A stretch of DNA of 64,000 nt from an uncultured Gammaproteobacteria bacterium (GTDB lineage: Bacteria; Patescibacteriota; Microgenomatia; Levybacterales; UBA12049): the NCBI GenBank assembly GCA_964416505.1, contig CAYQEJ010000001.1, positions 1,692 to 65,691 on the forward strand, in the 5' to 3' direction. Under the pieces are notes generated by a model. The model worked only from the letters and a program-made list of their open reading frames with translations, was not told the origin of the DNA and made no database searches. Below are positions 16,704-54,452 of the stretch, one piece after another (position 1 is the first letter of the stretch; the number at the start of each line of letters is the position of its first letter). The position numbers and the translations under genes were made by a program.

Positions 16704-16741
16704 ATTATAAGCTATTTTAAGATCTAAATCAAACTATAGGA
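16704..16741 (-). promoter_or_regulatory. sigma70-type promoter with TCCTATAG upstream box for the 16000..16695 gene
   Basis: On the minus strand: tcctatagTTGATT-17nt-TATAAT-8nt-ATG. Confidence 0.55.
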
Positions 16742-16784
16742 TATAATTAATCCAATTTGAATATTGTTTTTAGGCATAGATTGG

Positions 16785-16825
16785 TCCTATAGTTAGTTGT
16801 AAGTACGTTTGATTTGTACTACAAT
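16785..16825 (+). promoter_or_regulatory. sigma70-type promoter with TCCTATAG box for the deacetylase gene
   Basis: tcctatagttagTTGTAA-17nt-TACAAT-7nt-ATG (16833). Confidence 0.5.
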
Positions 16826-16832
16826 ACGCATT

Positions 16833-17492
16833 ATGGAAAAATTAGCCAAATATGATCCTACAAAAGATAAACCAAGGATAGCTATTTCTTCTGATGACGG
16901 TCCGTACCCCAAAACTATAGAAGGGCTTTTGGGTGTACTGCATGATAAAAAAGTTCCGGCTACTCTCTTCTGGATTGCAGAAAACGCTAAAAGATTTCAA
17001 AAACAAGATCCTGTATGGTTTGAAAAAGTACTTTATCAGATAAACGACGAAGGACATGAGATAGGTCTTCATGGACCGAGCGATTATGAGCCGAGCGCCT
17101 GGACCAGAGCGGTTACCGCTCATGGACCACGTGAAATTAGACGTGCATATTGGGATCTGGAAGCAATGACTGGAATGGAGGTAAGGTATTTTAGACCACA
17201 TATTCTTCTCCAGCCGTTGGCGGTAGCCGCAGCAAGAATGCTCGGACTTCGAACTCCAATTCCTGATGCAGCTAACTATGCAGATGGTGCTGCTCCGGTC
17301 GATGAACAAGTTAGAAAATTTTCAGGTGGACATGAAGGAAGTATATTGGTATTTCATGACGGAATAAGTAAATATAGGCAGACCACGAATGCAGTTGCCG
17401 CTCTTCCTTTGGTAATTGATATTTTAAGAGCTAGAGGACTTGAACCAACAAATATATCAGGTCTTCCCCACGGATCCTACAGATCAATCTAA
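16833..17492 (+). CDS. polysaccharide deacetylase (NodB homology domain)
   Basis: 'IAISSDDGPY' (motif 1), 'EIGLHG' (motif 2) and 'RPH' (motif 3). The ORF-track start at 16809 is a TTG extension; the first ATG is at 16833. Confidence 0.65.
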   Translation: MEKLAKYDPTKDKPRIAISSDDGPYPKTIEGLLGVLHDKKVPATLFWIAENAKRFQKQDPVWFEKVLYQINDEGHEIGLHGPSDYEPSAWTRAVTAHGPREIRRAYWDLEAMTGMEVRYFRPHILLQPLAVAAARMLGLRTPIPDAANYADGAAPVDEQVRKFSGGHEGSILVFHDGISKYRQTTNAVAALPLVIDILRARGLEPTNISGLPHGSYRSI

Positions 17493-17530
17493 TTTGCTGT
17501 ATAATTTTATTTTGAAAGGGGGTGAATTAT

Positions 17531-17947
17531 ATGGCAAAATTAAATCCTTATTTGCATTTTAAAGATAATACTCGTGAAGCTATGAATTTTTATAAATCTA
17601 TATTTGGAGGAGAGCTCACGATGAGTACTTTCAGAGAAGGTATGAATGATAATGGTCCTGCGGCTGATAACATCATGCATGCGCAGCTTACTATTGGTCC
17701 TGAAATGACACTTATGGGATCTGATACTCCACCTGGTATGGAGATTAATCCGGGTTCAAGCGTAGGAATGTCTTTAAGCGGAGAAGCAAGTGATGAAGAG
17801 AAATTAAAAGGTTACTGGGAAGGATTATCAAACGGGGCGAATATAACTGTTCCTTTGGCTAGTTCTCCATGGGGAGATACTTTTGGAATGCTAACAGATA
17901 AATTTGGAATGGAATGGATGGTAAATATCGCTGGTAAGAAGGAATAA
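17531..17947 (+). CDS. VOC-superfamily PhnB-like protein (glyoxalase/bleomycin-resistance fold)
   Basis: 'YLHFKDNTREAMNFYKSIFGG'. SD GGGGGTG 6 nt before the ATG at 17531; the track start at 17522 is GTG. Confidence 0.55.
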   Translation: MAKLNPYLHFKDNTREAMNFYKSIFGGELTMSTFREGMNDNGPAADNIMHAQLTIGPEMTLMGSDTPPGMEINPGSSVGMSLSGEASDEEKLKGYWEGLSNGANITVPLASSPWGDTFGMLTDKFGMEWMVNIAGKKE

Positions 17948-18002
17948 TCCTTCAGTGGAAATTCTTAAAAGCTCATTTTCCGTGAGCTTTTTTGATGGGA
18001 AA

Positions 18003-18746
18003 TTAAACTTTTGCTTCTTCTGATCTAGGAAGATCAATATTTTTTAAAATATCCCTAATTCTAAATGGTCTTCCTGCCAATGCTGGTGCAGCTGATCGTA
18101 CAGGGAGAGCCAAAGCTATTTGAATTAGATTAAGATCCATATAATCTTCAGCAGCATCAATCTGGTAGCCTGGCGCATTTACGGGTGAGTTGTGTTTGTA
18201 AGGCTCAAAAGACATGGACATTATTCCATAAGGTAAAAGTCTTTCATATGGAGTAGCAAAGCGTTCAAGAGTATCTACGAGAGCCATTCCTTTTAAAGCA
18301 AGAAATCTAATTTCTTCAGGATCTACTTCGTCTTCACCTTCTGCCATTTTTGTTTCAACTACAAGCCCCTTGTCTTTAGTTGATATTCTAATAGAATTTA
18401 CTTCAGGAGCTCTTTGATCCTCAGGAATAACAATTAAGCCATTATTAGAAATACGTACAGCGCTTTTATCTTTAAAAGCTATTGCTGATAAATTTAATAT
18501 TGCTTCGTATCTAGCGAAATACATTACTGATTCGAATTCTTGCTGAAGCATTTCTCCGGATGATGAGTTTATTCTTACGACACCGTATCTTCCATCACTT
18601 AAATTACCAGTAACGATATAATGAGATGCAACATATCTTCTATTTTCCCTATCGCTTGAATTGTAAAGTCCTACTCGCACATCTGGATGCGCTTCTAGGA
18701 TTGCTTCTACTGGTGTTAATGAAGGACCTTCTATAACTCTCGACAT
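18003..18746 (-). CDS. hypothetical protein, atypical composition
   Basis: The ORF-track start at 18764 is a TTG extension; the first ATG is at 18746. It is preceded by tcctatagTTGAAA-17-TAAAAT-8-ATG. Confidence 0.45.
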   Translation of the reverse strand: MSRVIEGPSLTPVEAILEAHPDVRVGLYNSSDRENRRYVASHYIVTGNLSDGRYGVVRINSSSGEMLQQEFESVMYFARYEAILNLSAIAFKDKSAVRISNNGLIVIPEDQRAPEVNSIRISTKDKGLVVETKMAEGEDEVDPEEIRFLALKGMALVDTLERFATPYERLLPYGIMSMSFEPYKHNSPVNAPGYQIDAAEDYMDLNLIQIALALPVRSAAPALAGRPFRIRDILKNIDLPRSEEAKV

Positions 18747-18754
18747 AGATGGGA

Positions 18755-18790
18755 ATTTTACCAAAATAAGAGGTTATTTTCAACTATAGG
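18755..18790 (-). promoter_or_regulatory. TCCTATAG-box sigma70 promoter immediately downstream of tRNA-Lys(CTT)
   Basis: Minus-strand sequence tcctatagTTGAAAataacctcttattttggTAAAAT. Confidence 0.5.
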
Positions 18791-18796
18791 ACTAAG

Positions 18797-18868
18797 TGAG
18801 CCGCCAGAGACTCGAACTCTGAACCGATTCCTTAAGAGGGAATTGCTCTACCATTGAGCTAGCGGCCC
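18797..18868 (-). tRNA. tRNA-Lys (anticodon CTT)
   Basis: Cloverleaf readable: acceptor GGGCCGC/GCGGCTC, D-loop GCTCAATGGTAGAGC, anticodon stem ATTCC/GGAAT with loop CTCTTAA, T-arm GGTTCGAGTCT. No encoded CCA. Confidence 0.8.
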
Positions 18869-18914
18869 TAAAAAATTGTTCGCATTTTTTCAGGGTAAAC
18901 CCGAATTAATGCAT

Positions 18915-19169
18915 TTATTTTGTTAATTTAGCAATCAATTTCAATTTATATTCTTTTTTCCATTTTTTGATCGCTGCTTCTCTTTTCCTGGCTTCAGACT
19001 GGTTTGTATACAATTCCGAATATACTAAACTTACTGGTCTTTTGCCTCGAAGTGATTTCGCACCTCGATTACTTGTATTATGTTCTAAGACACGTCTATT
19101 TATATCTGTTGTTATGCCTGTATATAAACTTTCGTCGCTACATTTTACTATATAAACGTGCCAATTCAT
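18915..19169 (-). CDS. GIY-YIG nuclease-family protein (standalone, about 84 aa)
   Basis: 'WHVYIVKCSDESLYTGITTDINRRVLEHN...GAKSLRG...LVYSE' is a canonical GIY-YIG core. The long ORF-track form overlaps tRNA-Arg, so I trimmed it to the internal ATG at 19169. Confidence 0.7.
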   Translation of the reverse strand: MNWHVYIVKCSDESLYTGITTDINRRVLEHNTSNRGAKSLRGKRPVSLVYSELYTNQSEARKREAAIKKWKKEYKLKLIAKLTK

Positions 19170-19227
19170 AATCAACAAATGTTTGCCCTGATGTTTGCAC
19201 TGAAAAATTTCGCTAAATTTTTTAGTG

Positions 19228-19300
19228 CGCGTCTGACAGGAGTCGAACCCGCAACCCCCTGGTCCGAAGCCAGGTGCTCTATCCATTGAGCTACAGACGC
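19228..19300 (-). tRNA. tRNA-Arg (anticodon TCG, tentative)
   Basis: Acceptor GCGTCTG/CAGACGC, D-loop AGCTCAATGGATAGAGC, anticodon stem CCTGG/CCAGG with loop CTTCGGA, T-arm GGTTCGACTCC. Confidence 0.65.
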
Positions 19301-19345
19301 AGATCAATTTTATCAAATCGTCTTGTAGTACTCAAATGAGGAGTA

Positions 19346-20959: not shown

Positions 20960-20966
20960 GTCGCGA

Positions 20967-20996
20967 ATTATAGGCTAATTTGCTGGGTTATGTCAA
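20967..20996 (-). promoter_or_regulatory. consensus sigma70 promoter for the 19346..20959 gene (leaderless spacing)
   Basis: Minus strand: TTGACA-18nt-TATAAT-tcgcgac-ATG. Confidence 0.55.
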
Positions 20997-21072
20997 TTCA
21001 AGAAAATTTATTCTTGCGCTATTATTACTTATTTTTAATCTAATAAATAAATTTTCTTTTGATAATAAATTC

Positions 21073-23168: not shown

Positions 23169-23230
23169 AATTCTACCTATGATACGCGCCTGAGCTTTTC
23201 ATTTCAAGTCTAATTTGTTAGGATTTAGTT

Positions 23231-28850: not shown

Positions 28851-31724
28851 TTAAAGTATTTTTTTGAGAAACGCTCCAGTGTGAGATCTTGGATTATCGG
28901 CAATTTCCCGTGGGGTTCCTGTTGCAACTATATTTCCTCCGCCTTCTCCACCTTCTGGTCCTAAATCTATTATATAATCTGCGTTTTTAATAATATCAAG
29001 GTTATGTTCAATAACGATCACGCTATTTCCAATATCTACCAATTTTCTAAGAACGTGAAGTAATTTTTCTAGATCTGCAAAATGTAATCCTGATGTTGGT
29101 TCATCCAAAAGATAGAGTGATTTCGCTCCTCTTTTGGAAAGTTCGGATGCTAATTTTACTCGCTGTGCTTCTCCTCCTGAAAGAGTTGGGGCGGGTTGAC
29201 CGAGTTTTACATATGAAAGCCCTACGTCATTTAAAGTTAAGAGTCTATTTGATAAGGAAGGAATGAAGTTGAAGAATTCTGCAGCTTCTAAAACGCTCAT
29301 ATCTAATACATCGGCAATGTTTTTTCCATTAAACATTACTTCCAATGCTTCTTTGTTATATTGCTTTCCTTCACAAACTTCGCATGTTATATAAACATCT
29401 GGTAAGAATTGCATTTCAATTTTGATTTGGCCTTCTCCCTCGCAAGCTTCACATCTTCCACCTTTTACATTGAAGGAAAATCTGCCGGGTGCATATCCTT
29501 TAAGTCTAGCGTCCTTTGTTTTTGCAAAAATATCCCTGATGTAATTAAACGATCCGGTATATGTTGCCGGATTACTCCTAGGGGTTCTTCCAATTGGAGA
29601 TTGATCAATTGAGTAAATGTGTTTTATATGCTCATATCCTTGAATACTTGTGTGTTTTCCTGGTTTTTCTCTGTGGAAAGGATCTTCTAATTGTTTTAAA
29701 CCATGGTATAAAATATCGTTAATCAAAGTTGATTTTCCGCTTCCTGAAACGCCTGTCACTACGATTAATTTTCCTAGTGGAAATTCTACATCTATATTTT
29801 TTAGATTATGCTCACTTGCTCCTCTTATGATTAGTTTTTCATTTATTCCATTTTCCATTTTTTTCTCTACTTTTATTTTTCTTTTTTTGGAAAGATATGC
29901 ACCTGTTAGGGAAGCTTCATCTTTTTTAATTTCATCTATTGTTCCTTCAAATATAATATTTCCTCCACCCTCTCCTGCCTGAGGACCAAAGTCTACAATG
30001 TAATCTGACGCTTCCATCGTCTCTTCATCATGTTCAACAACAAGAACTGTATTTCCTAAATTCTTGAGCTTTATCAAGGTTTCTATAAGTTTTTTATTAT
30101 CTCTTTGATGAAGTCCTATCGAAGGTTCATCCAAAACATATAGAACTCCAGTAAGTCCCGAGCCAATTTGAGATGCTAGCCTAATGCGTTGTGCTTCTCC
30201 TCCGGCTAAGGTATCCGCTCCACGAGAAAGAGTAAGGTAATCAAGTCCAACATTTGTTAAGAAGGTAAGACGCTGTATTATTTCTTTGAGAATTAATCTT
30301 CCGATTGTCTCTTCACGAGATGAGATGCTTGCTGGGAGTGTCTCAAAAAATTTTAGAGCTTTATCAATAGAAACATCCGAAATTTCCATGATCGACTTTC
30401 CATTTATTGTTACCATGAGTGCCTCTTTCCTAAGGCGTGAGCCTTTACAGGATGGACAGGTTTCATATTTCATGAATTTTTCAATTTGGGATTTGAAAAA
30501 AGTTGATTCTGTATTCTGATATCTATTTGTAAGTTCCTGAAGAATTCCCGGAAATTTTTCTGAAATTGTCGTATTTCTTCCCCACCTGTTTTCTCCGTGA
30601 ACAAAATATTCTCTATCCCCCGTTCCTTCTAGAAGTATTTGTTTTTTCTCAGGAGAAATTTCTGATAGCCTTTGGCTAAGTGGAATCCCATTGTTTTCAG
30701 CAAATGTCTTAAAAGTTCTAGTAAACCATGTATCATGAGATAAAAGATTTGAGAATGGAAGAACCCCACCTTCTAGAATTGTAAGATTATTATTGAATAC
30801 AAGTTCTTTATCTACTGTAAGAATGTTACCCAAGCCATCGCAGGTGGGACATGCTCCATGTGGAGTATTAAAAGAAAAGATGCGTGGTTCTACTTCTGCT
30901 ATAGAAATATTACATACAGGACAGGCAAATTTAGTGGAATATAAATTATCTTCCATTTTTTTTGGTTTATCTGGAATTTCAAATCCTGGGTCTTTAATAA
31001 TTGTTAGTATTATTTCCCCGTCACCAAATTTGAGTGCTTGTTCTACGTCACTTGATACTCTTGAGCGATCAGTTTTATCTGAGAGCATGAGCTTATCAAT
31101 TATTACTTCGATTGAGTGTTTATTAGTTTTTATAAGCACTAGATCATCAGATAAGTCAAATATATGACCATCAACTCTAACCTGCTTGTAGCCTCTTTTT
31201 CTTAAATCTTCAAAAAGATCACGATATTCACCCTTTCTGTCTTTAACCATTGGAGAAAGGATCATTGCTTTTGTTTGTTTGGAATTTTGCATTGCTGAAA
31301 AATTCATTATCATGTCTGTAATTTGATCAGGCGATACACGAGAAATTTCTCTTCCGCAGTTAGGGCAATGTGGGTGCCCTATACGAGCAAATAGAAGTCT
31401 TAAATAATCATAGATTTCAGTGACGGTTCCAACTGTTGATCTGGGATTTCTGGATGTTGATTTTTGATCAATTGAAATTGCAGGAGAGAGCCCTTCTATG
31501 AGATCCACATCTGGTTTTTTCATTACGCCTAAGAATTGTCTTGCGTAAGAAGATAGAGATTCTACATATCTTCGTTGACCTTCTGCGTAAATGGTGTCAA
31601 AGGCCAATGAAGATTTTCCACTACCTGACAGACCGGTAAAAACGACCAGTTTATTTTTAGGAATTTTAAGATCAATATTTTTGAGGTTATGCTCTCTAGC
31701 GCCTTTTACAATAATTTCGTCCAT
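28851..31724 (-). CDS. uvrA: excinuclease ABC subunit A
   Basis: Two ABC ATPase modules ('GLSGSGKSSLAFDTIYAEGQRRY', 'GVSGSGKSTL') and zinc-finger Cys clusters. 957 aa. Confidence 0.95.
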   Translation of the reverse strand: MDEIIVKGAREHNLKNIDLKIPKNKLVVFTGLSGSGKSSLAFDTIYAEGQRRYVESLSSYARQFLGVMKKPDVDLIEGLSPAISIDQKSTSRNPRSTVGTVTEIYDYLRLLFARIGHPHCPNCGREISRVSPDQITDMIMNFSAMQNSKQTKAMILSPMVKDRKGEYRDLFEDLRKRGYKQVRVDGHIFDLSDDLVLIKTNKHSIEVIIDKLMLSDKTDRSRVSSDVEQALKFGDGEIILTIIKDPGFEIPDKPKKMEDNLYSTKFACPVCNISIAEVEPRIFSFNTPHGACPTCDGLGNILTVDKELVFNNNLTILEGGVLPFSNLLSHDTWFTRTFKTFAENNGIPLSQRLSEISPEKKQILLEGTGDREYFVHGENRWGRNTTISEKFPGILQELTNRYQNTESTFFKSQIEKFMKYETCPSCKGSRLRKEALMVTINGKSIMEISDVSIDKALKFFETLPASISSREETIGRLILKEIIQRLTFLTNVGLDYLTLSRGADTLAGGEAQRIRLASQIGSGLTGVLYVLDEPSIGLHQRDNKKLIETLIKLKNLGNTVLVVEHDEETMEASDYIVDFGPQAGEGGGNIIFEGTIDEIKKDEASLTGAYLSKKRKIKVEKKMENGINEKLIIRGASEHNLKNIDVEFPLGKLIVVTGVSGSGKSTLINDILYHGLKQLEDPFHREKPGKHTSIQGYEHIKHIYSIDQSPIGRTPRSNPATYTGSFNYIRDIFAKTKDARLKGYAPGRFSFNVKGGRCEACEGEGQIKIEMQFLPDVYITCEVCEGKQYNKEALEVMFNGKNIADVLDMSVLEAAEFFNFIPSLSNRLLTLNDVGLSYVKLGQPAPTLSGGEAQRVKLASELSKRGAKSLYLLDEPTSGLHFADLEKLLHVLRKLVDIGNSVIVIEHNLDIIKNADYIIDLGPEGGEGGGNIVATGTPREIADNPRSHTGAFLKKIL

Positions 31725-33440: not shown

Positions 33441-33483
33441 TTTTGCAAAGACGAGTAGGCGTTTGAATGAAGTTCCGATTGGC
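33441..33483. repeat. 43-bp direct repeat A: displaced copy of the sortase 3' coding end (5 mismatches)
   Basis: The reverse complement encodes PIGTSFKRLLVFAK, matching the sortase C-terminus PIGTSFKRLLIFAKPV encoded at 34333..34375. Confidence 0.8.
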
Positions 33484-33594: not shown

Positions 33595-33632
33595 TCCTAT
33601 AGTTTGACATTTTTAGCCTCGATTGATATACT
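33595..33632 (+). promoter_or_regulatory. TCCTATAG-box consensus promoter of the cassette gene
   Basis: tcctatagtTTGACA-17nt-TATACT-11nt-ATG (33644). Confidence 0.55.
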
Positions 33633-33643: not shown

Positions 33644-34321
33644 ATGACAAGAAAAGAAGTTTTGTCTGGAGAATCCGTTGTTGAAGGACGAGAATCAGTA
33701 CCAGATGATAGACTAATTGCCTTATGGCAAAAGTTAAATTACGGGTCTCATATAGCTGGTGAAGTTGCAAATAGAAATTTATTTACCCATGCGTTTAGGC
33801 ATTCAGGATATAGTATAGAGGGAAAAAAAGTATCAATATCTTTTGGATATAAACGACCTGGAGTCATTTATAGATTACTAGACACTTATGGATATAAATA
33901 TACTCTCAAACCAGGAGTTGTTCTTGATGCAAGACAGACTGCTGCTTTTTACCAAGGAGTTGCTGGAATAAGCATTATAGAGCAAGTAGATGAATTATCG
34001 GAGCGAAGACTAGATTTAGCTGTTAGAAGAGATGGGCAGATCATAGAATCTGCTGTCGCTGAATCTACGCATGGGTTAAGTACTCAGGGCGTAGGCTTGG
34101 TAACATCTCTATGGCAAGAAAATGATTATTATAGAGACTTGTTAGATGGAGATTGCGAAGGTAGGATAGATGCGCAAACTCATGCTTTTGTAGCAAGACG
34201 AGGTATTACGTTAAGTGAAATAGAGCCTGCGGAAAGATATTTAGGTGCGATTGTTGGATATCTCCAAGGTTTACGCCGTGGTCCTCAACCATTTTTTCCA
34301 GTATCCCCTTCTGTTAAATAA
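33644..34321 (+). CDS. hypothetical protein (cassette passenger), atypical composition
   Basis: The ORF-track start at 33623 is a TTG that overlaps the -10; the first ATG is at 33644 (MTRKEVLSGES...). No family recognised. Confidence 0.45.
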   Translation: MTRKEVLSGESVVEGRESVPDDRLIALWQKLNYGSHIAGEVANRNLFTHAFRHSGYSIEGKKVSISFGYKRPGVIYRLLDTYGYKYTLKPGVVLDARQTAAFYQGVAGISIIEQVDELSERRLDLAVRRDGQIIESAVAESTHGLSTQGVGLVTSLWQENDYYRDLLDGDCEGRIDAQTHAFVARRGITLSEIEPAERYLGAIVGYLQGLRRGPQPFFPVSPSVK

Positions 34322-34323
34322 GT

Positions 34324-34899
34324 TTACACGGGTTTTGCAAAGATTAGGAGGCGTTTGAATGAAGTTCCGATGGGCCAGCATGTTTGGATAATTAATTGAT
34401 CTTTCGTTTCTTTTAGATACTTAACTTCTGAAGGAGAAACAATTTTTTTTTCAAAAACTTTATACTTAAATTCTTTTCCGTCCTTTTTAATAATTATTTG
34501 ATCATTTTTATTTAATTCTCCAAGACGTAGGAAAATTGTATTATATCTTGTGATTTCTAAAGGATTTCCTGATGAGTGTGCAAAAACAAATATACTCCCC
34601 TTTTCTCCAGGTTTTGCTGTTCCTTTGGCTTGGGCCACACCTGTTTTTAAAACTTCCTGATAAACCTTTTCGTTAAAAGGGTCTACATCCATTTTCAATG
34701 GAGCTTGAGCATTTATTTTGGGAATCGTTATAAATGATCCATTTAGCTCATTTTGAGATTTAATTTTTGGAGGAAAAAGATAAGTAGAAATAACTGGAGT
34801 AAAAATAATAAATAGTAAGAAAAGAGATGTGATAATTAAAAAATTTCCTACATGGTAGGAAAGATTTTTTTGTTTTTTTTGAATTTTCTTCTTTTTCAC
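34324..34899 (-). CDS. sortase (transpeptidase)
   Basis: N-terminal TM, 'FVFAHSSGN' (His), 'LIIQTCWP' (TLxTC Cys) and a conserved Arg near the C-terminus. Adjacent to an LPXTG substrate. The last 14 codons coincide with direct repeat B. Confidence 0.8.
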   Translation of the reverse strand: MKKKKIQKKQKNLSYHVGNFLIITSLFLLFIIFTPVISTYLFPPKIKSQNELNGSFITIPKINAQAPLKMDVDPFNEKVYQEVLKTGVAQAKGTAKPGEKGSIFVFAHSSGNPLEITRYNTIFLRLGELNKNDQIIIKKDGKEFKYKVFEKKIVSPSEVKYLKETKDQLIIQTCWPIGTSFKRLLIFAKPV

Positions 34900-34917: not shown

Positions 34918-36024
34918 TTACCTGGCAAATAGATAGTTTGGAGATCTTCCAGACCGTAGCCGCAAGTACCCACCCATAAAAAGCATTACTATATTTCCAA
35001 TTAGTAGGAAAAGAAGAGAAAAGTTACCTGTTATTGGAAGTATTTGTCCTGTGGTAGTTCCTGCTGTAGTTCCCCCTGATCCTCCTCCGTTATTACCATT
35101 TCCATTATTGTTGTTGCCGTTGTTTGAAGATGGTGGTGGAGTTGAGTCTGGTGGATTTTTTGTCGGGTCTTCATGGCAGCAGTCAACGTCTACAATTCCT
35201 CCGTTTATGTCTTTATTATCGATGGTTGTTGTGAGATAAATATCTCCTGTATTTATGTCTACGTTCCCATTGTTGTTATTTGCGCTGTTTTTTCCAGTAT
35301 TTAAATCCCAGTTAGAATTATTTACGATATTTGCGCTACTTTCGATATTTATATTTAGTGGATTCGAGTTGCTGTAGTTAACTTGATTATCAGATTTTGC
35401 TCCGTTTCCTTTTATAACTATATACGCACTTGCCCCGCTTGGATTTCCTGCGTGAACATTATAGATATTTATTCCTGAATTATTAATTATATCTGTTACG
35501 TAAATACTTCCTGTGTTTATGCTTACATTCCCAAGATTATTATTTGCACTATTGTAGCCGGTATTTGCTTTTCCTTTTACGTTGTTAGTTATGTTTGCAT
35601 TATTTGATACGTTTACATTTGTCGTTGAATTGGAATTAAAGTTAATCGAATTATCAGAATATGTCCCATTACCGGAAATATTGAATGTTTGATCATTCGT
35701 ACAGCAACCAAGCTCAACTGAGCTTTGATTTATATTTTCATTGTTAATTTGGGAATTTACTGTTGCATTTCCGGTATTTATATTTGTTTCTCCTGAGTTA
35801 TTGTTCGCGCTGTTTCCACCAGTATTAGCGGTGGTATTTACAGTATTAGTTATATTTGCATTATTTTCTTGATTTACAGTAGTAGTTTGAGTAGACGTGA
35901 CCGAAACATTGTTATCTGCTCCAGATCCATTATTTTCAATTACAATTGTCTCTGCAAATACTTTATATGGATTTGCAAGCAAAACTACAGATAAAAGACC
36001 CAATAAAATTTTTTTGTTTAACAT
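34918..36024 (-). CDS. LPXTG-anchored Asn/Thr/Gly-rich repeat surface protein (family member 2)
   Basis: Signal peptide. C-terminus 'LPITGNFSLLFLLIGNIVMLFMGGYLRLRSGR' has LPxTG, a hydrophobic stretch and a basic tail. Cys pairs 'GCC' and 'DCCHED'. Gly/Asn-rich pre-anchor spacer. Confidence 0.7.
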   Translation of the reverse strand: MLNKKILLGLLSVVLLANPYKVFAETIVIENNGSGADNNVSVTSTQTTTVNQENNANITNTVNTTANTGGNSANNNSGETNINTGNATVNSQINNENINQSSVELGCCTNDQTFNISGNGTYSDNSINFNSNSTTNVNVSNNANITNNVKGKANTGYNSANNNLGNVSINTGSIYVTDIINNSGINIYNVHAGNPSGASAYIVIKGNGAKSDNQVNYSNSNPLNINIESSANIVNNSNWDLNTGKNSANNNNGNVDINTGDIYLTTTIDNKDINGGIVDVDCCHEDPTKNPPDSTPPPSSNNGNNNNGNGNNGGGSGGTTAGTTTGQILPITGNFSLLFLLIGNIVMLFMGGYLRLRSGRSPNYLFAR

Positions 36025-36071
36025 AACTATATTTAGGCAGGAATTTACTAAATCCGAGGCAGAGGATTTAA

Positions 36072-38246
36072 TTAGACAGATTTAACTTTAATATATAATT
36101 TTCGACTTATTATAAATATTGCTAAAACAGGTAGTGCTAAGATAGCCCATGCTAAATTGACTGTTGGTTTTCCTGAATCATTTATTCCTTTTGTAAGTGA
36201 TCCCATTATTTTTGCTGTGTTTGCTCCTGCAACTTTTATATCTACATTTGGAGTAAATCCGTTTGAAGTAAATGTTGCAACTCCACCATTTGATCCACCC
36301 ACTGCTGCCACAGTTGTTGATTTAGTTGTATTTGTGCTTTCTGTTGATGAGTTATTGTTGCTAGAGTTATTTGATCCGGTTCCGCCCTGAGCGAGCACTT
36401 CATTGTTTTCTTTATGTTCTTTTGAGCTTCCTGGAGTAATAAAGTCTCCAATCCAGCTTCCAAAAACATTTACAACAGTTACTACTAATTTTCCATTTCC
36501 TACAATATTGTTGTTTACGAAATTCACTAAGTTAGCTACGATATTTGCATCTCCAGTTGTAATATTTGAATTTCCTCCTGTGTTGTAGTTAGTGGTGTTG
36601 TTTCCTGTGTTTGCTGACAAATTGAGAGTGTTATTTATGTCTGCAGTATTTGTTTGAGTGGTCGTATTATTAACTGTAGTTGATCCGTTAGCTACGTTGG
36701 TAGAATCTGCTCCATTTCCTGAATTTGTTGCAGTTATGCTTCCGGTTACAGGATTTATTAAGAATTGGAATAGTGGAGAACCAGCGAAGTTATTTCCATC
36801 TTGAGATCCAAACAATTTTCCAACCCAGTTTCCTGCTTCGTTCACTATTACTAACCACATGGTTCCTCCCATAAGATTCATGTTTGCAATATTTAAGATG
36901 TTTGCATCAATGTTTGAAGATCCGGTAGATATATTGTTGTCTCCACCAGTATTGAATTTGGAATCATTGTTTCCTGTATTTGCATCAAGTACTAATGTGT
37001 TTGTGATGTTGGCATCATTTGATTGGAATGTGTTGTTGTTAATAGTCGAATCAGAATTTGTTGTATTGCTCGATCCTGCTCCGTTTCCTGTATTTGAAAG
37101 CATTGTTGTGTCTCCACAGCTTCCTCCACAGATTGCATCCATCATTTCTTGGGTTAATATAATGTCTCCGACTAAATTTCCAAAAATATTTACTACGCCG
37201 TAAATTACGTTGCCCGCGATATTGTTGTTGGCAAATGTAACTGCATTTGCTGAAACATTTGCGTCACCAGTAGTGATGTTTGAGTCTCCACCTGTATTAA
37301 AGCTTGCTCCGTTGTTTCCGCTATTTGATGCAAGATTTAAGTTATTCCCTACAGTTGCGCTGTTGGTTTGATTTGTGTTGTTGTTTACTGTTGAGTCATT
37401 GGTTGCTTCATTGTAGGAGAATGCTCCATTTGCATCATTTTCTAAAGCTAGGCTTTGTCCACATCCTGCGATGCATCCTGCGTTGAAGTCCAAGATTATG
37501 TCTCCTTGATGGTCGTCTACTATATTGAACTCAGCTACAGCTACTCCATCCACGTTTGTATTTACAGATGTAACTACTGTTCCAGTTGTATTTGCGTCGC
37601 CTGTTGTTATTGAAGAATTCCCTACGTTAAATGAAGAATCATTATTTCCTGTAACGGTTGAGGAATTCATATTGTTGGATACGTTTGCGCTATTTCCCTG
37701 ATTTGTATTATTGTTTGTTGTTGATGAAGAATCGCCAATATTTGTTGAACCTGCACCATTTTCTGAATTAGAAATTGAAGTGCTTCCTCCACCACAGCAT
37801 CCGCTTGATGAAGTATTATTATTTCCGGTCGTTATTATTGATGAAGAATTGCTTCCATCCCCTGTGTTTATAGATGTATCTCCAACATTTCCATTTGAAG
37901 AGGTTCCTGTTCCTGATGAAGTAGGAGTTTGAGTTGTATCTGTTGTATTTGATGAAGCTGCTGGTGTAGGAGCTGGTTTTTCTTTTGGTTTATAGTTATC
38001 TGGATTCCAGGTTGGAGCTGTTGGTGCAGTAGGTGCAGTTGGCGCTGTAGGAGCCGTAGGAGCACTTGGTGCAGTTGGCGCTGTAGGAGCAACCGGTTCT
38101 TGTGGAGCAGTAGGTTCAGGAGTAGGTTGTACGGATGATGTATCGGCTGGAGTGGATTCTTCTGCAAGAACTGCAAAAGATGTACCCATTCTTCCGAAGA
38201 GCATAATTCCTATTAATAATATTGCGATTGATTTTTTAATTTTCAT
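36072..38246 (-). CDS. large secreted Asn/Thr/Gly-rich repeat protein with Pro-rich (TAP)n linker and C-terminal TM anchor (family member 3)
   Basis: Signal peptide; 'APTAPTAPSAPTAPTAPTAPTAPTAPT'; about 8 repeat modules with CC/CG Cys pairs; C-terminus 'LAWAILALPVLAIFIISRK'. Confidence 0.6.
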   Translation of the reverse strand: MKIKKSIAILLIGIMLFGRMGTSFAVLAEESTPADTSSVQPTPEPTAPQEPVAPTAPTAPSAPTAPTAPTAPTAPTAPTWNPDNYKPKEKPAPTPAASSNTTDTTQTPTSSGTGTSSNGNVGDTSINTGDGSNSSSIITTGNNNTSSSGCCGGGSTSISNSENGAGSTNIGDSSSTTNNNTNQGNSANVSNNMNSSTVTGNNDSSFNVGNSSITTGDANTTGTVVTSVNTNVDGVAVAEFNIVDDHQGDIILDFNAGCIAGCGQSLALENDANGAFSYNEATNDSTVNNNTNQTNSATVGNNLNLASNSGNNGASFNTGGDSNITTGDANVSANAVTFANNNIAGNVIYGVVNIFGNLVGDIILTQEMMDAICGGSCGDTTMLSNTGNGAGSSNTTNSDSTINNNTFQSNDANITNTLVLDANTGNNDSKFNTGGDNNISTGSSNIDANILNIANMNLMGGTMWLVIVNEAGNWVGKLFGSQDGNNFAGSPLFQFLINPVTGSITATNSGNGADSTNVANGSTTVNNTTTQTNTADINNTLNLSANTGNNTTNYNTGGNSNITTGDANIVANLVNFVNNNIVGNGKLVVTVVNVFGSWIGDFITPGSSKEHKENNEVLAQGGTGSNNSSNNNSSTESTNTTKSTTVAAVGGSNGGVATFTSNGFTPNVDIKVAGANTAKIMGSLTKGINDSGKPTVNLAWAILALPVLAIFIISRKLYIKVKSV

Positions 38247-38351
38247 TTTTTTTATTTTTAGTTTTAATTTTAATTTTTTCCTTATTTAGTTTATGTTTGG
38301 TGGCAGGGGTTCTTGTTGAAGTGCTAACAAGAGCGCCCCTACCGCCTTACA

Positions 38352-39617
38352 TTAGAATGACATTCCGAAGAAAGCCATCATTGCTGCGAAATTGAAAGAA
38401 AAATCAACTTCTGGCATTGTTGGCCATTCCCATGTTGGCATGTCACCAACGACGTTAACGTTGCCTGAGTTCGAAACTCCTGAATTTACAGTAGCATCTC
38501 CTGTCACGATGGAAGGATCTGTTTCTGGTGTTCCAGTGTTTGAATCAGCACCGTTATAGCCGGTTTTTGCGTTTAAATCACCGAGATCATTGTAAAGACC
38601 TGCATTATTTCCTTGTCCAACAGCTTGAACGCTATCGAGATTTAAAGTAATAATGTTGTCTGCATGATTGTGGTGTTTGTAGTGATGTGATGATGCATCA
38701 GCTCCGTTTCCAGAGATTTTTGCAGTAACATCCCATACACATCCGCAGTCAACATCTGCAAAGTTGAAGTTAACTGAATTGTCAACGTCAGCATTTACAG
38801 TTGCATTTCCAGTGTCGATCATTACATCTCCACCTGTGTTGAAGTTTGCATCGTTTCCACCTGTCTTTGCGTCTGCATCGACGTCGTTAGAAACGCTTGC
38901 ATTGTTCGACTGGCCTACTGTTGTAGTTTTAGCTAAGTCAGCGGTAATATAATTATCGCTTCCTGCGCCGTTACCAGAAATGATGAAGGATGCTGATGGA
39001 TTTGATCCACCATGATTCGAGCTAACTCTTGCGGAGTTAACGTTTGCTACAGTTGAAACGCTAACGTTTGATTTAGCATTTCCAGTGACGATTGAAACAT
39101 CTCCACCTGTATTCTTATAAGCATCGTTACCACCTGTTTTTGCGTTAGCATCAACATTGTTGTTAACATTTGCGTTATTAGATTGATTTACTGCTGTAAC
39201 TGTTCCCTGATTTAACTGGACACCATTGTCAGAATAAGCTCCGTTTCCAGAGATATTAACTGTGGTATTTCCAGATTGGCAACAATTAACTTCAGCTTGG
39301 TTAGAGTTGAGAACGTTAGTCACTGTTGTATTTGTTGTAGCATTACCTGTAGAAATAGTTGTATTTCCACCGGTATTGAAATTTGCATTATTTCCGCCTG
39401 TTGAAGCGTTTGAAGTAACGTTATTGTTAACGCTAGCTGTATTGTTCTGATTTACAACTGTTGTAGTGTTTTGTGAAACATTAGCCCAATTATCAGATCC
39501 TGCTCCATTGCCGGAAATTTCGATTGTTGTACCTGCGAAAGCTACTGGTGCGAAACCATTAGCTAATATTGCTACGGTTGCAATTGCTGTACCTAATCTT
39601 TTTTTGTAATCTGTCAT
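38352..39617 (-). CDS. secreted Asn/Thr/Gly-rich repeat protein (family member 4)
   Basis: Signal peptide. About 5 modules '[I]SGNGA.SDN...NTGGN.AN.NTGG...I.TGNA' with Cys pairs 'NCCQ' and 'DCGC'. SD GGGGGTG. Confidence 0.6.
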   Translation of the reverse strand: MTDYKKRLGTAIATVAILANGFAPVAFAGTTIEISGNGAGSDNWANVSQNTTTVVNQNNTASVNNNVTSNASTGGNNANFNTGGNTTISTGNATTNTTVTNVLNSNQAEVNCCQSGNTTVNISGNGAYSDNGVQLNQGTVTAVNQSNNANVNNNVDANAKTGGNDAYKNTGGDVSIVTGNAKSNVSVSTVANVNSARVSSNHGGSNPSASFIISGNGAGSDNYITADLAKTTTVGQSNNASVSNDVDADAKTGGNDANFNTGGDVMIDTGNATVNADVDNSVNFNFADVDCGCVWDVTAKISGNGADASSHHYKHHNHADNIITLNLDSVQAVGQGNNAGLYNDLGDLNAKTGYNGADSNTGTPETDPSIVTGDATVNSGVSNSGNVNVVGDMPTWEWPTMPEVDFSFNFAAMMAFFGMSF

Positions 39618-48167: not shown

Positions 48168-48228
48168 TATTACTTTCTTCTTGCACAATTTTTAACAATT
48201 CTTAATTGCTAATCGTTAGTATGAATTT

Positions 48229-48408: not shown

Positions 48409-48409
48409 T

Positions 48410-48760: not shown

Positions 48761-48784
48761 ATCTCTAACTGCTATACTCTTCTT

Positions 48785-49537: not shown

Positions 49538-49538
49538 C

Positions 49539-50024: not shown

Positions 50025-50044
50025 AGAAGATTAGGAAGTTTTTG

Positions 50045-50116
50045 TGAGCCGGCAGGGGATCGAACCCTGGACCAAGAGCTTAAAAGGCTCCTGCTCTACC
50101 GCTGAGCTACCGGCCC
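50045..50116 (-). tRNA. tRNA-Lys (anticodon TTT)
   Basis: Acceptor GGGCCGG/CCGGCTC, D-loop AGCTCAGCGGTAGAGC, anticodon stem GGAGC/GCTCT with loop CTTTTAA, T-arm GGTTCGATCCC. Confidence 0.8.
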
Positions 50117-50255
50117 TGAACAATTTCTTTAGAAATTTTCAGGGCAAACCCTATATTTCTAATGAGCCTATTATATAGGATTAGGCGTGAGGTTGACAAG
50201 TTAAACCTTTTCTAACAAAATTTGCAATTTTTTTATCCTGTAGTATAATCCAGCC

Positions 50256-50978: not shown

Positions 50979-51020
50979 AACTTGCCTTGAAAATCAGTTT
51001 TAAGCTATAATATAGGGTAC

Positions 51021-51094
51021 GCCGTGTTCGTCTAGTGGCCTAGGACACCTGGTTTTCAGCCAGGGAATCAGGGGTTCGACTCCCCTACACGGTA
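51021..51094 (+). tRNA. tRNA-Glu (anticodon TTC)
   Basis: D-arm TCGTCTAGTGGCCTAGGACA (tRNA-Glu-type), anticodon stem CCTGG/CCAGG with loop TTTTCAG, T-arm GGGGTTCGACTCCCC, acceptor GCCGTGT/ACACGGT. Confidence 0.8.
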
Positions 51095-51099
51095 CTAAT

Positions 51100-51741
51100 T
51101 TACCAACCCCCGGAATTCCAAGACTCATATCTTGATGGATCTTCATCGGTATTTATTGGATGGCTTACCACATATGTTGATGGTTTTCTGAAATTTCTTT
51201 CTATGGCGGCATCAACTTTTAGTACATTTCTCGCATCAGAAGGTTTTAAAATTCTATCACCTAGCATAACTGATCCATCTTCTAATCCATATGCAATAAT
51301 TGCATCATACCAATCCTCATAACTTTTCATGTCATTTGATAATACATCTACTTGGATTGGTATATCAGATAGTAACGCACACAAGCGTGATCCTTCTCTT
51401 CTTAAAGAAAGACCTAGCTCTTGAGACAATTGTCCTAGTAAATTTGGAACTTCGCTTGTATCAAGTGCTTCATTTCTCAATCTCGCTTTTTCTGCTTCTA
51501 GCACAGCTTGCCTTGTAGCTTCTGCTTGCATCGTTTCTTGCTGTAACCTTCTGGCATCATCTTCAATTCTTGCTCTTTCTTTTCTTTCAGTCTCATTTTT
51601 TTCTATATCTTTGAGTCTTTGTGCTTCCTCGATAGCTCTTTGTTCTCTCAATCTGGGTAAGAAATTTCCATCACCAATATATCCATCTGGCCCAGATCTA
51701 ATTATATGCCGTAAGCCTTTTCTTATGTATTCCATGCGCAA
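51100..51741 (-). CDS. hypothetical protein with central coiled coil, atypical composition
   Basis: 213 aa, R/E-rich helix 'EAQRLKDIEKNETERKERARIEDDARRLQQE'. Confidence 0.4.
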   Translation of the reverse strand: MRMEYIRKGLRHIIRSGPDGYIGDGNFLPRLREQRAIEEAQRLKDIEKNETERKERARIEDDARRLQQETMQAEATRQAVLEAEKARLRNEALDTSEVPNLLGQLSQELGLSLRREGSRLCALLSDIPIQVDVLSNDMKSYEDWYDAIIAYGLEDGSVMLGDRILKPSDARNVLKVDAAIERNFRKPSTYVVSHPINTDEDPSRYESWNSGGW

Positions 51742-51798
51742 ATTATACTACAGGACATTTTTATAATCAAATAAAAATGATTCTATAGTAAATAAAAC

Positions 51799-53223
51799 AT
51801 GTATTTTGATAGAATCAGTTTAATGCTTAGCATTAGGAATTTATTAACGTTTTTTATTTATTCCACCTTTCTAGTTCTTTTCTTTCTGATTTCTCTTAAC
51901 CGTTATTTTTCATTTCAGATTTTTCAATACGACTTCGGGATATTTTCTTCAACCATTTATCAGCTCAGTCAATTTAAAATGGCTTATATTGAGCATATAA
52001 GCCTGGGAAATATAGCTTTTCTTGGAGATCATTTTCAGCCAAGCTTAGCTCTCCTATCTCCGCTATTTTGGATATTCAAAGATATTCGGATTCTGATATT
52101 TGAGCAGACTTTTAGTATTGTAGCGACTGGTTTTGTCATTCAAAGGATTGCTTTAAAAAAAGGACTCAAATTCTTGCCTAGTCTTTCAATTGCTATAATT
52201 TTTCTTTTGTATGCTGGTATTGAAAATCCGCTTGTCACGGATTGGCATCCTGAACCTACTGCAGGTCTTTTCCTAGTTCTTTTTGTTTATTTCTTTTTGT
52301 ATAGCAAGAAAAAATTCATTGCTCCAATTCTCGCTTTAGTATTTCTTGGATTTAAAGAAAGTAACGCTATTACTTTATCTTTTTTTCTATTCTCAAGCTT
52401 ATTTGTCTTACCTAAAAGAAGAAGAGAAATTACTATTTATTTAATTGGAGCTTTTGCATGGTTTTTTGCAACTATCAAACTTCTAATTCCACATTTTTCC
52501 GGAAGAGAATATTTTTATTCCCCCGAGCTTCCAAAAAGCATGCTTGATTTAAGACTTTCGCTCGAAAAAACAGCTAAATATGAATTTGTCTGGAAATCTT
52601 TATTTTCTTTTGGGTTATTGCCTCTTCTTGCCCGCTTTAGCCTCATTCCAATAGTAGGAGAAATTTTTATAAGAGTATTCCCTCTCCATTCATTCTTCGA
52701 AAGTTTTAATTTAAGCATGCACTACAATGTTTATCTTGGAATTTTCCTAGCTCTTGCTAGCATCGACGCACTACTCTTGGGTTTTAAAAAATTTAAATTT
52801 GAGAATATAGAAGTATTTGTCTCATTTGCTTTAATTTTATTTACTCTCTTCTTTGCTAAGAAATTTACAAATTCTCCTATAGTTTTAGCTACAAATCCTA
52901 CATTTTGGAAAGAGTTAAAACCCAGACAGGATCTCTTTAACAGTTTGAAATTTGTTCCAAAAAATGGCTTTTTAGCTTCCCAAAATAATTTACTTCCCTA
53001 TTTATCCTTGCGTGACGACAAGCTCATATCTATGAGTAAAGGTTATCGAATGAAAAATCCAGAAATAGTAGTTTTTGATCTTTCGGAAGGACAAAATCCA
53101 AATAACTTTTATCCAGAAAATTATCAATTTCTAGTTAAAGAGAAAACATTTTACGAAAAAAGTAAAAAATTTAAAAGGATTGATACGGGCAATAAAAACT
53201 TTTATGTATTTGTGAGGAACTAA
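51799..53223 (+). CDS. DUF2079-family polytopic membrane protein (paralog of the 13619 ORF)
   Basis: 'QYDFGIFSSTIYQ...GDHFQPSLALLSPLFW' parallels 'RFDLGNMAQTVW...HADFILAFLSPFY'. Confidence 0.5.
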   Translation: MYFDRISLMLSIRNLLTFFIYSTFLVLFFLISLNRYFSFQIFQYDFGIFSSTIYQLSQFKMAYIEHISLGNIAFLGDHFQPSLALLSPLFWIFKDIRILIFEQTFSIVATGFVIQRIALKKGLKFLPSLSIAIIFLLYAGIENPLVTDWHPEPTAGLFLVLFVYFFLYSKKKFIAPILALVFLGFKESNAITLSFFLFSSLFVLPKRRREITIYLIGAFAWFFATIKLLIPHFSGREYFYSPELPKSMLDLRLSLEKTAKYEFVWKSLFSFGLLPLLARFSLIPIVGEIFIRVFPLHSFFESFNLSMHYNVYLGIFLALASIDALLLGFKKFKFENIEVFVSFALILFTLFFAKKFTNSPIVLATNPTFWKELKPRQDLFNSLKFVPKNGFLASQNNLLPYLSLRDDKLISMSKGYRMKNPEIVVFDLSEGQNPNNFYPENYQFLVKEKTFYEKSKKFKRIDTGNKNFYVFVRN

Positions 53224-53789
53224 ACTTCGACGTCTTTATTTTCTTCTTCGCCTTCTGGCTCTGGAGGTAAAAATTCTTCTCCACCACTGTCATTTGATTC
53301 TTCTACTTTTTTATATTCTGGTTTTAACCACTCTACATAAGTGCATCCTGTGGCTTTCCTAGCTTCCCTATCCCAGCCTGCGGTAGAGCATTTTTTCATT
53401 CGCTTTCCTGCATTCGTAGTAAATAAAACAAGTGGGCTTCCGCACTCAGGGCAAGCTTCATCAAGTTTTTCAGTAGTGCCATTTATCCACTCTACATAGT
53501 CACATCCTTCAGATTTTTTTGTATCCTTATTCCAGACATTTGTAGAACACTTTTTCATTTTTTTACCAAATCTTGTTGTTTGAAGTATTAATGGGGATCC
53601 GCATTTAGGACACTTTTCATTTAGAGTCTCAGGAGGAGTTTCTAACCATTTTACATAGTCACATCCTTCATTTTGTTTGGTTTCTGGATTCCAGCTTCCA
53701 GTTGAGCACCTCTGTAGCCTCTTACCTGATGCTGTAGTTGTAACTTCTGCTAAAGGGCTTCCGCACTTAGGACAAATTTCTTCTGACAT
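53220..53789 (-). CDS. standalone protein with three tandem topoisomerase-type C4 zinc-ribbon repeats
   Basis: Three repeats of 'CP(K/E)CGSPL...(K/R)CST..W......GC.YVEWL'. Acidic tail. Confidence 0.5.
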   Translation of the reverse strand: MSEEICPKCGSPLAEVTTTASGKRLQRCSTGSWNPETKQNEGCDYVKWLETPPETLNEKCPKCGSPLILQTTRFGKKMKKCSTNVWNKDTKKSEGCDYVEWINGTTEKLDEACPECGSPLVLFTTNAGKRMKKCSTAGWDREARKATGCTYVEWLKPEYKKVEESNDSGGEEFLPPEPEGEEENKDVEV

Positions 53790-53844
53790 AAGATACTAGA
53801 ATAGCTCATTTATTTAAAATTGACAATATCTTATAATGCAAAGC

Positions 53845-54144
53845 ATGTTAGAAGCTGATGAAGTAAGAGATCCATTTAAATGTGCAGCTGTTCCGGATAT
53901 TGCAGTTGATCCTATTGATGGGCCAGGTGCGGAAGTAGGAATTTCTATAGTTTGTCTTCTTATTGAAGAGTGCGGTGCAAATCTCGAATTATCCACTACG
54001 GTTGTAGCTGAAGAAATAGAAACTCAGTTATCTTTTATAAGACATCAGTTGGCTCGTGAAGTTCCAAGAGTTTGTCTTGCTAATAAAGCCGCTCAGGAAG
54101 CAGGAGTATTGGAGAAATTTACTCCTCCCCCAGGGCTTTCCTAG
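53845..54144 (+). CDS. hypothetical protein, atypical composition
   Basis: The ORF-track ATG at 53836 lies inside the TATAAT hexamer; the second ATG at 53845 is more likely. TTTATT-17-TATAAT. Confidence 0.35.
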   Translation: MLEADEVRDPFKCAAVPDIAVDPIDGPGAEVGISIVCLLIEECGANLELSTTVVAEEIETQLSFIRHQLAREVPRVCLANKAAQEAGVLEKFTPPPGLS

Positions 54145-54348
54145 TATTGGTCTGGTTTGTTCTACTTTGTCTTATTGATCAGTTGATTAAATAGGTTTAT
54201 CATAGCTTTTACCCTTAATACGTAAGTATTAAATGGCAGGAACCTTTCGCAAGATAGGTACCCCGAAAGAACCCCAGCAATGGGGTTTTTTTGCGGCCGT
54301 TAATTCCTATATCCATTCCTTGGATGTCCTCTCCTATCCTATAACATT

Positions 54349-54377
54349 AGCCTCGCAAGGCCTGGCCTTGAGAGGCT
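54349..54377. repeat. 29-bp palindrome (copy 5, 1-nt variant ...CTTGAGAGGCT)
   Basis: Preceded by 'TCCTATCCTATAACATT'. Confidence 0.85.
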
Positions 54378-54413
54378 AGGTGAATTCAAACTTATCTTAT
54401 ATACCAAATACTA

Positions 54414-54452
54414 TCCTATAGTTTGACTTTTAGCTTCGTTTTTTGATAAAAT
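54414..54452 (+). promoter_or_regulatory. TCCTATAG-box promoter of the 54458 gene
   Basis: tcctatagtTTGACT-16nt-GATAAA-7nt-ATG. Confidence 0.5.

Follow-up and report, generated by a model that had tools for sequence, protein, structure and literature searches.

The 64-kb window studied here (i.e., the whole stretch of DNA that was analysed) is a piece of bacterial chromosome of ~35% GC, and comparison of its UvrA (28851-31724, minus strand) placed its nearest relatives among metagenome-assembled genomes of Candidatus Levybacteria/Levyibacteriota, within the Microgenomates group of the candidate phyla radiation (CPR). Relatives, designated by L numbers, show UvrA identities to the window of 87% (L001), 86.8% (L231), 86% (L002), and 84% (L064). 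Recognisable genes in the window include uvrA, a dinB-like polymerase IV gene, RNase HII, Nramp, and sortase genes, and genes for large repetitive surface proteins, while a search for Rfam-type RNA families across the window returned four tRNA genes and no other family. Five further genes (g1 to g5; Table 1) share in their promoters an 8-bp box, CCTATAGT, which is the subject of this analysis.

The box consists of a palindromic core, CTATAG, with its flanking bases and a purine two bases upstream, and it lies directly upstream of the -35 hexamer of sigma-70-type promoters. In the window, TCCTATAG occurs in 7 copies against 1.98 expected, a number reached in 0 of 100 shuffles, and CCTATAGTTTGA in 3 copies against 0.00 expected, likewise unmatched in 100 shuffles, which bears out the claim of a first-pass annotation of this DNA that a box is shared. 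Five TCCTATAG copies are intergenic and stand at strong promoters, each being followed by a -35 beginning TTG(A/T); a TAnnnT -10 comes 17-18 nt after it and the ATG another 5-11 nt on, with 43-47 nt between box and ATG. The remaining two (43272, minus strand; 52875, plus strand) are intragenic, lack TTGA, and look like chance occurrences. A promoter scan of 16600-18900 ranked the three box promoters of that region as its top three promoter-like matches. Of the promoter hexamers proposed in the first-pass annotation, those for four genes stood, whereas at g5 TG-A-TAAAAT is the preferable reading of the -10; the spacer is then 18 nt long and the ATG follows after 5 nt, as is supported by the orthologues, which retain TGGTAAAAT and TGATAAAAT. 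The box likewise forms the direct -35 context, as had been claimed, at four of the sites, but at site 2 it is 4 nt away. We attribute this to a small insertion in the window copy, because the orthologous promoter in L237 has the canonical form CCTATAG directly followed by TTGAAT-17-TATAAT-7-ATG. The site 3 box is 4 nt past the 3' end of tRNA-Lys(ctt) (18796-18868).

None of the five proteins is homologous to another. The expectation that they would have no recognisable backbone function was confirmed, with one polysaccharide deacetylase (g2) and four proteins without a Pfam match, and many other window open reading frames (ORFs) also have no Pfam match. The AlphaFold2 (AF2) model of g1 (pLDDT 70.7) gave PRPK and Rio1 as best Foldseek matches (E 1e-5, TM ~0.5), so that g1 is modelled as a small, atypical fold of the protein-kinase type (Bud32/PRPK, Rio1-like). 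Among 5.8 billion proteins, g4 has one homologue cluster and g5 three homologues, and PDB matches of g5 were insignificant only (E>=0.36). The foreign, GC-richer composition ascribed to these genes was not substantiated: their GC of 0.362-0.427 compares with 0.356 +/- 0.040 for the other 66 ORFs (one-sided Mann-Whitney p=0.07), and their GC at third codon positions (GC3) is not higher than that of the other ORFs and if anything lower (p=0.95).

Table 1 Positions of the box genes, their promoters, and two further sequence classes in the window
Feature	Position	Strand	Description
g1	16000..16695	-	231 aa; no Pfam match; no PDB sequence match
g2	16833..17492	+	219 aa; polysaccharide deacetylase (Pfam PF01522, 4.6e-15)
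g3	18003..18746	-	247 aa; no detectable family; no PDB sequence match
g4	33644..34321	+	225 aa; ORFan; no Pfam or PDB sequence match
g5	54458..55594	+	378 aa; Tat-like SRRNFF N-terminus and HELGH motif (read from sequence)
Site 1 box TCCTATAG	16734..16741	-	then T; -35 TTGATT 16727-16732; -10 TATAAT 16704-16709; ATG 16693-16695
Site 1 module	16693-16741	-	TTGATT-17-TATAAT-8-ATG
Site 2 box TCCTATAG	16785..16792	+	then TTAG; -35 TTGTAA 16797-16802; -10 TACAAT 16820-16825; ATG 16833; TTGTAA-17-TACAAT-7-ATG
Site 3 box TCCTATAG	18784..18791	-	abuts -35 TTGAAA 18778-18783; -10 TAAAAT 18755-18760; ATG 18744-18746; TTGAAA-17-TAAAAT-8-ATG
Site 4 box TCCTATAG	33595..33602	+	then T; -35 TTGACA 33604-33609; -10 TATACT 33627-33632; ATG 33644; TTGACA-17-TATACT-11-ATG
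Site 5 box TCCTATAG	54414..54421	+	then T; -35 TTGACT 54423-54428; 18-nt spacer; -10 TAAAAT 54447-54452; ATG 54458
CCTGTAGTATAAT	50237-50249	+	TRTAG-class promoter
CCTGTAGTATAAT	51742-51754	-	TRTAG-class promoter
TTATAGTATAAT	upstream of 43769	+	TRTAG-class promoter
TTATAGTATAAT	upstream of 47489	-	TRTAG-class promoter
31-nt palindrome	457-487, 954-984, 5070-5100, 6196-6226, 54348-54378, 55606-55636		six intergenic copies

All five sites have the geometry of leaderless promoters, with a -10 5-11 nt before the start and no Shine-Dalgarno (SD) sequence, and transcripts would therefore be expected to begin with the start codon or only a few bases away from it. The leaderless positioning that had been claimed for these genes was thus correct, but it is not specific to them because 36 of the 71 window ORFs, including uvrA and the Nramp gene, carry TAnnnT 5-9 nt before their start, as against a rate of 12.6% over all ATGs. 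SD-like sequence precedes just 4 of the 71 under a loose pattern, and by eye (A)GGAGGTG-/GGGGGTG-type SDs are seen at five starts (3002, 11327, 17531, 32780, and 39617). Leaderless-type starts include those at 2549, 7928, 7991, 20959, 31724, 42317, 45767, and 56860, and several intergenic regions of 46-62 nt hold back-to-back pairs of divergent leaderless promoters (7928/7991, 23168/23231, and 53789/53836). Across the window and 80 related loci, the geometry was found at 461 ORFs, with a TTG -35 and a TGn-extended -10 as the general style. In the literature that could be searched we found no description of leaderless promoters in CPR bacteria, and their presence at about half of the genes here bears on gene calling and start-codon assignment in such genomes.

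Four of the five genes have orthologues that keep the box, in the most distant case at 49% protein identity, with spacers that have diverged. Orthologues of g1 (67-70% identical) in four lineages (L001, L235/L236, L237, and L238/L239) retain TCCTATAGTTTGATTT and TATAAT around diverged spacers, in the layout tRNA-Lys, ~19 nt, TCCTATAGTTTGATTT, variable spacer, TATAAT, 7 nt, ATG. The L237 orthologue of g2 (82.7% identical), a gene at a different position, has kept its box, and the L231 orthologue of g4 (69%) has kept agTCCTATAGTTTGAC followed by TATACT. For g5, orthologues in L081 and L082 (90% amino acid identity) and L083 (49%) conserve CCTATAGTTTGAC, TG-n-TAAAAT, and the short distance to the ATG, with a differing spacer, and L083 carries another box promoter 1.2 kb downstream. 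The base at position -1 of the box is lineage-specific, being T in all five window boxes and in the g1 and g4 orthologue boxes but in just 22% of the metagenome set described below, with GG in both L083 boxes, which fits co-evolution with each lineage's own factor.

Beyond these orthologues, the box also occurs in relatives at 61-71% UvrA identity (L019, L052, and L060), and we searched metagenomes with the pattern CCTATAGTTTGA-N18-20-TANNNT-N5-11-ATG, counting ORFs of at least 80 aa from the ATG and admitting a few ORFs cut by contig ends from 40 aa. The scan matched at least 120 loci, and among the matches listed, 73 had an ORF of the required length. The same pattern in viral contigs gave 27 matches, many of them identical copies, of which 3 (one sequence) had such an ORF; with the metagenome side taken from the matches listed, the contrast is strong (Fisher p=2.6e-6). 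The viral matches are chance-like and nearly all without an ORF, and we discarded a phage or mobile-element promoter set on that ground. Downstream of R-N-CCTATAGT, the logo of the 73 promoters shows TTGAC(A/T), then a short run rich in T, and TGn-TATAAT at a strict spacing of 17 nt. No conservation was seen in it further upstream of the box, which sets aside a T7-like single-subunit polymerase promoter (..CTATAG). The offset between box and -35 is fixed, with +/-1 nt of play, and a TTGA -35 always stands alongside. One-mismatch variants of the box are enriched solely at the correct offset (8 vs ~1.2 expected), and box-less strict leaderless promoters have no base preference upstream of the -35. 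The box is a discrete, all-or-none element and not a graded promoter feature. A literature search for the motif found no description of it.

The genes behind the box form a distinct class, and most of their products match no Pfam family. Among 61 box-driven proteins, matches fell to 20 Pfam families, including six S-adenosylmethionine (SAM) methyltransferases, GT2, GNAT, one helix-turn-helix (HTH) protein, and one M10 peptidase; none of the 61 had a core function, and NCBIfam agreed with the Pfam picture. As a control, 46 box-less leaderless genes from the same loci matched 45 families, including PGK, GAPDH, L21, L28, NDK, SOD, and QueA. The 108 immediate neighbours of box genes matched 98 families, mostly housekeeping, and included one integrase; box genes stand singly among housekeeping genes. 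On the reading that we favour, the box tags lone accessory genes, most of them specific to a lineage, which are reshuffled among close relatives. Two functional themes were considered and dropped: secreted effectors, as an N-terminal hydrophobic segment was found in 5% of box proteins and most are predicted to be soluble, and defence systems, for which PADLOC gave the generic methyltransferase model mad2 alone (5 of 67).

The box also occurs inverted, as ACTATAGG, at the same offset from the -35. When all 16 possible flank pairs of NCTATAGN plus TTGA were considered, the recurrent ones were C...T and its reverse complement A...G only; the latter, i.e., the inverted 8-mer, was counted 7 times, and complete leaderless promoters stand behind ACTATAGGTTGAC in L033, L086, and L158. 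In L160 (near 2387), L169 (near 5856-5864), and L170 (near 863-871), a single CCTATAGT box has divergent -35-like hexamers (TTGAC/TTGAG) on both sides, and in L169 full leaderless promoters leave the box in both directions, so that two promoters appear to have one box in common. Because the 8-mer occurs in either orientation at the same place, it is the palindromic core that holds its distance from the -35. As a restriction-modification or methylation palindrome the core was rejected: CTATAG is not avoided in the window (23 vs 21.5 expected) and therefore gives no sign of a cognate endonuclease.

From these observations, the box is probably, if far from certainly, the binding site of a putative sequence-specific DNA-binding regulator acting on ordinary sigma-70-type leaderless promoters. 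In the promoters on which it would act, TTGAC(A/T) and (TGn)TATAAT stand 17 nt apart and the ATG follows at 5-11 nt, and the sigma factor is presumably the usual one because the -35, the spacer, and TGn-TATAAT match the clade's general promoters. With its core centred near -40, a bound regulator could touch sigma region 4 or the alpha subunits, as in class-II-type activation, or alternatively could block the -35 and repress; a set of single accessory genes would thereby come under one control. A common regulator, one of three alternatives in the first-pass annotation, is hence the best fit to a box that is conserved, all-or-none, fixed in position, and present in inverted copies, but no factor to go with it was found.

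Several points weigh against a regulator. A cognate DNA-binding protein, which the first-pass annotation had proposed to look for, did not emerge: the single OmpR-type two-component pair of the window (6239-7928) has no link to the box, and no regulator recurs among the 108 neighbours of box genes. For the site of a dimeric regulator in bacteria, the conserved core is very short, with no conserved distal half-site, and the outer flanks are asymmetric (C...T), contrary to what a symmetric dimer predicts. The 78 downstream proteins include only 3 homologous pairs; targets are thus almost never orthologous from genome to genome, which is unusual for a conserved regulon. Transcription starts are placed from -10/-35 geometry only, and the metagenome sample was selected with a pattern that itself imposes box, -10, and ATG, on contigs without taxon assignment.

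Instead of a separate regulator, RNA polymerase itself might read the box, as an extended -35, through an alternative or second primary-like sigma factor, or through the alpha C-terminal domain, making the promoters strong or specially timed. Its fixed position relative to the -35 and the good TTGA -35 that always accompanies it would suit such a contact, as would a related TRTAG pentamer that abuts the -10 in a second class of promoters (CCTGTAGTATAAT at 50237 and 51754; TTATAGTATAAT before 43769 and 47489). We nevertheless consider direct reading by polymerase unlikely, as other promoters show no graded box-ward bias, an inverted box and two-sided -35-like hexamers are unfit for an orientation-specific sigma or alpha contact, and ribosomal-protein and other core genes, at which one would expect elements of promoter strength, lack the box. 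The alternative sigma factor proposed in the first-pass annotation is unlikely in particular, since the -35, the 17-nt spacer, and TGn-TATAAT are those of box-less promoters of the clade and the box can be inverted.

A second alternative is that the box is a footprint of mobility, left either by promoter-plus-ORF cassettes that recombined at or near CCTATAG(T)TTGA or by common descent of a travelling promoter. Box genes are indeed variably present in relatives of 84-87% UvrA identity: both the window and L231 have g4, which L001 lacks and which in L064, at a similar distance, is replaced by another gene. A segment of ~2 kb (16742-18783), which carries g3, a VOC/glyoxalase gene (17531-17947), and g2, separates tRNA-Lys from g1 in the window only and is absent in four related lineages; it is bounded by two direct box copies, and homology with L001 breaks at the box. 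In L237 the g2 module lies on the opposite side of g1. Direct repeats flank some modules. A 43-nt repeat, 91% identical (33441-33483 and 34333-34375), brackets the site 4 box and g4, one copy being the genuine 3' terminus of the sortase gene (34324-34899, minus strand) and the other a displaced pseudo-3' end that carries a stop codon of its own; g5 is flanked by two 56-nt copies of a hairpin repeat; and further repeats occur in L174 (20 nt, abutting the box), L100 (25 nt), and L121 (28 nt). Box density in the window is ~25x that of 1.4 Mb of relatives' uvrA neighbourhoods.

Against mobility as the origin of the box, flanking repeats are not significantly enriched at box genes (4 of 62 vs 6 of 224 box-less genes, p=0.23), and the syntenic L231 locus holds g4 without the 43-nt duplication; target-site duplications were accordingly rejected. 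Linked integration at tRNA genes was rejected as well: site 3 and the g1 orthologues lie just past tRNA-Lys, but overall tRNA adjacency is not significant (4 of 66 vs 5 of 235 controls, p=0.11). The lone integrase among the neighbours, and the single placement of box genes among housekeeping genes, also speak against it. Similarity between modules is limited to the box and the promoter hexamers, simple descent could not produce an inverted 8-mer in an otherwise normal promoter, and the box stays put with its orthologues across deep divergence. A mobility footprint is therefore, in our view, an improbable explanation; of the promoter-plus-ORF modules originally proposed, the part that stands is that single variable genes shift position between relatives, but there is no evidence that the box moves them. 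Regulation and mobility are compatible readings, since rearrangement could make incidental use of repeated boxes as substrates.

The region 16000-19300, lying downstream of the genes for tRNA-Arg(tcg) and tRNA-Lys(ctt), proved a hot spot of rearrangement in comparison with L001, L064/L235, L237, and L238, and the content and order of its genes (g1, g2, g3, VOC/glyoxalase, a 187-aa gene, and a GIY-YIG gene) were different in every relative examined. Box-less single genes with flanking direct repeats of 44-145 nt were also seen (L201, 145 nt; L135, 87 nt; L188; L169; L025), which suggests that repeat-bounded, gene-sized insertions or duplications are common in these genomes generally.

A third alternative takes TATAGT within the box as the -10 of a second, upstream promoter that would give a transcript with a ~40-nt leader. 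TATAGT is one base off TATAAT, CCTATAAT is a common -10 context in the window (2480, 20959, and 45767), and the promoter scan lists TTCAAA-17-TATAGT at site 1. The 73 promoters, however, have no conserved -35 or TGn at the required distance upstream, the inverted ACTATAGG, read towards the gene, offers no hexamer resembling a -10, and the leader would be without a Shine-Dalgarno sequence, which makes an upstream promoter very unlikely. Chance, or a by-product of AT-rich intergenic DNA, might account for the two intragenic, accidental-looking copies among the seven, but for the five promoter copies it is already refuted by the shuffles, the conservation with orthologues, and the metagenome-versus-viral contrast, and as a general explanation it has practically nothing left to it.

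Among known systems, class II activator promoters carry CRP/FNR-type sites, inverted repeats of 16-22 bp, that are centred near -41.5 and abut or overlap the -35. The box would resemble these in standing against the -35 at a fixed distance from the start and in the use of what appears to be the housekeeping sigma factor; promoter geometry would place its CTATAG centre at ~-39.5. It differs in offering a 6-bp palindrome with 1-2 flanking bases only and no distal half-site in the 73-promoter logo; moreover, activator dependence is not obvious because the -35 and -10 of box promoters are already near consensus. The hrp box (HrpL, Pseudomonas syringae) is a promoter of an extracytoplasmic function (ECF) sigma factor and the plant-inducible-promoter (PIP) box (HrpX, Xanthomonas) an AraC-type direct repeat, and the targets of both are secreted effectors. 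As with those boxes, a short element here stands at a fixed distance from the -10 before many non-homologous, strain-variable genes and could by analogy be used to find members of the set, whereas the promoter here is of sigma-70 type and the products are mostly soluble and without a signal sequence. Class II activator sites and hrp/PIP regulon tags would be the nearest known analogues.

Other comparisons are more distant. Upstream (UP) elements are A/T-rich (-38 to -59), graded, and typical of rRNA and ribosomal-protein promoters. The box shares with them and with TRTGn extended elements the extra conserved bases beside a core hexamer (TRTAG resembles TRTGn), but unlike a UP element it has three G/C, is all-or-none and orientation-independent, and is absent from core genes (61 targets). 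Relative to alternative-sigma promoters, its -35/-10 consensus is not distinct from the clade's general TTG and TGn-TAnnnT, and its recognition is not orientation-specific. Integron cassettes are promoterless genes that stand beside intI in one-orientation arrays and end in attC. The box genes are likewise single and diverse, mostly without an assigned function, include acetyltransferases, methyltransferases, and VOC/glyoxalase proteins, and vary between close relatives, but they are scattered singly among core genes, have their own promoters, and lack both an integrase and a common 3' element (only g5 is hairpin-flanked). C-protein genes are often linked to mobile DNA, and C-protein systems, too, have a regulator-type site upstream of a gene with a leaderless mRNA. 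C-protein (C.PvuII-type) operators are ~35-bp double palindromes placed 17-18 nt before the start codon of an Xre-type C gene; a -10 cannot be recognised, and the transcripts are leaderless (PMC2632904). The present box has 8 bp, stands 43-47 nt before the ATG in the company of strong -35 and -10 elements, and precedes no C-protein genes and an HTH protein in 1 of 61 targets; identity with C-protein operators is ruled out on geometry (PMC2632904).

CPR bacteria are uncultured, have very few recognisable regulators, and their gene regulation is barely known. A searchable box that separates single accessory and ORFan genes from their housekeeping neighbours defines a candidate regulon, which could be tracked in metatranscriptomes, and it flags genes likely to be involved in strain-specific biology; the box could also serve as bait for the protein that binds it. 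A bolder extension, which we regard as speculative and rather unlikely, is that the box serves throughout the Microgenomates branch of the CPR as a very short, orientation-independent address label for single genes that were newly acquired or newly evolved, with one factor switching on or silencing the entire, quickly changing accessory pool together and the boxes providing the short homologies for swapping promoter-plus-gene modules between strains. If so, the system would be a promoter-carrying counterpart of gene cassettes, without an integrase.

Some minor features of the window were recorded alongside. The second, small promoter class has (CC)TRTAG directly against the -10, with CCTGTAGTATAAT and TTATAGTATAAT each occurring twice, and all four of its promoters drive proteins without a Pfam match; TRTAG right before a -10 was also seen in several related loci, at ~7x a rough expectation. 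On the minus strand, 34918-39617 encodes three large proteins (368, 724, and 421 aa) made up of internal repeats rich in Asn, Gly, and Thr, among them a 9-nt tandem array at 38011-38109. A sortase gene is adjacent, and the three are probably surface proteins anchored by sortase; between relatives they are strongly diverged. The protein encoded at 12797-13606 (minus strand) combines an N-terminal ATP-cone with an Mrr-type PD-(D/E)XK nuclease domain, and its gene adjoins the dinB-like gene in relatives too (L235 and L238). Finally, a perfect 31-nt palindrome, TAGCCTCGCAAGGCC-TG-GCCTTGCGAGGCTA, has no T-run and is confined to this genome and its closest relatives, L081 and L082, where one copy has a compensatory change of C-G to T-A. 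It may be a small RNA, a terminator of an unusual kind, or an element like the repetitive extragenic palindromic (REP) sequences. A possible link between this repeat and the box was considered: CCTATAA or CCTATAT plus 3-4 nt stands before several copies, and TAGCCTCG-like strings occur in some spacers.

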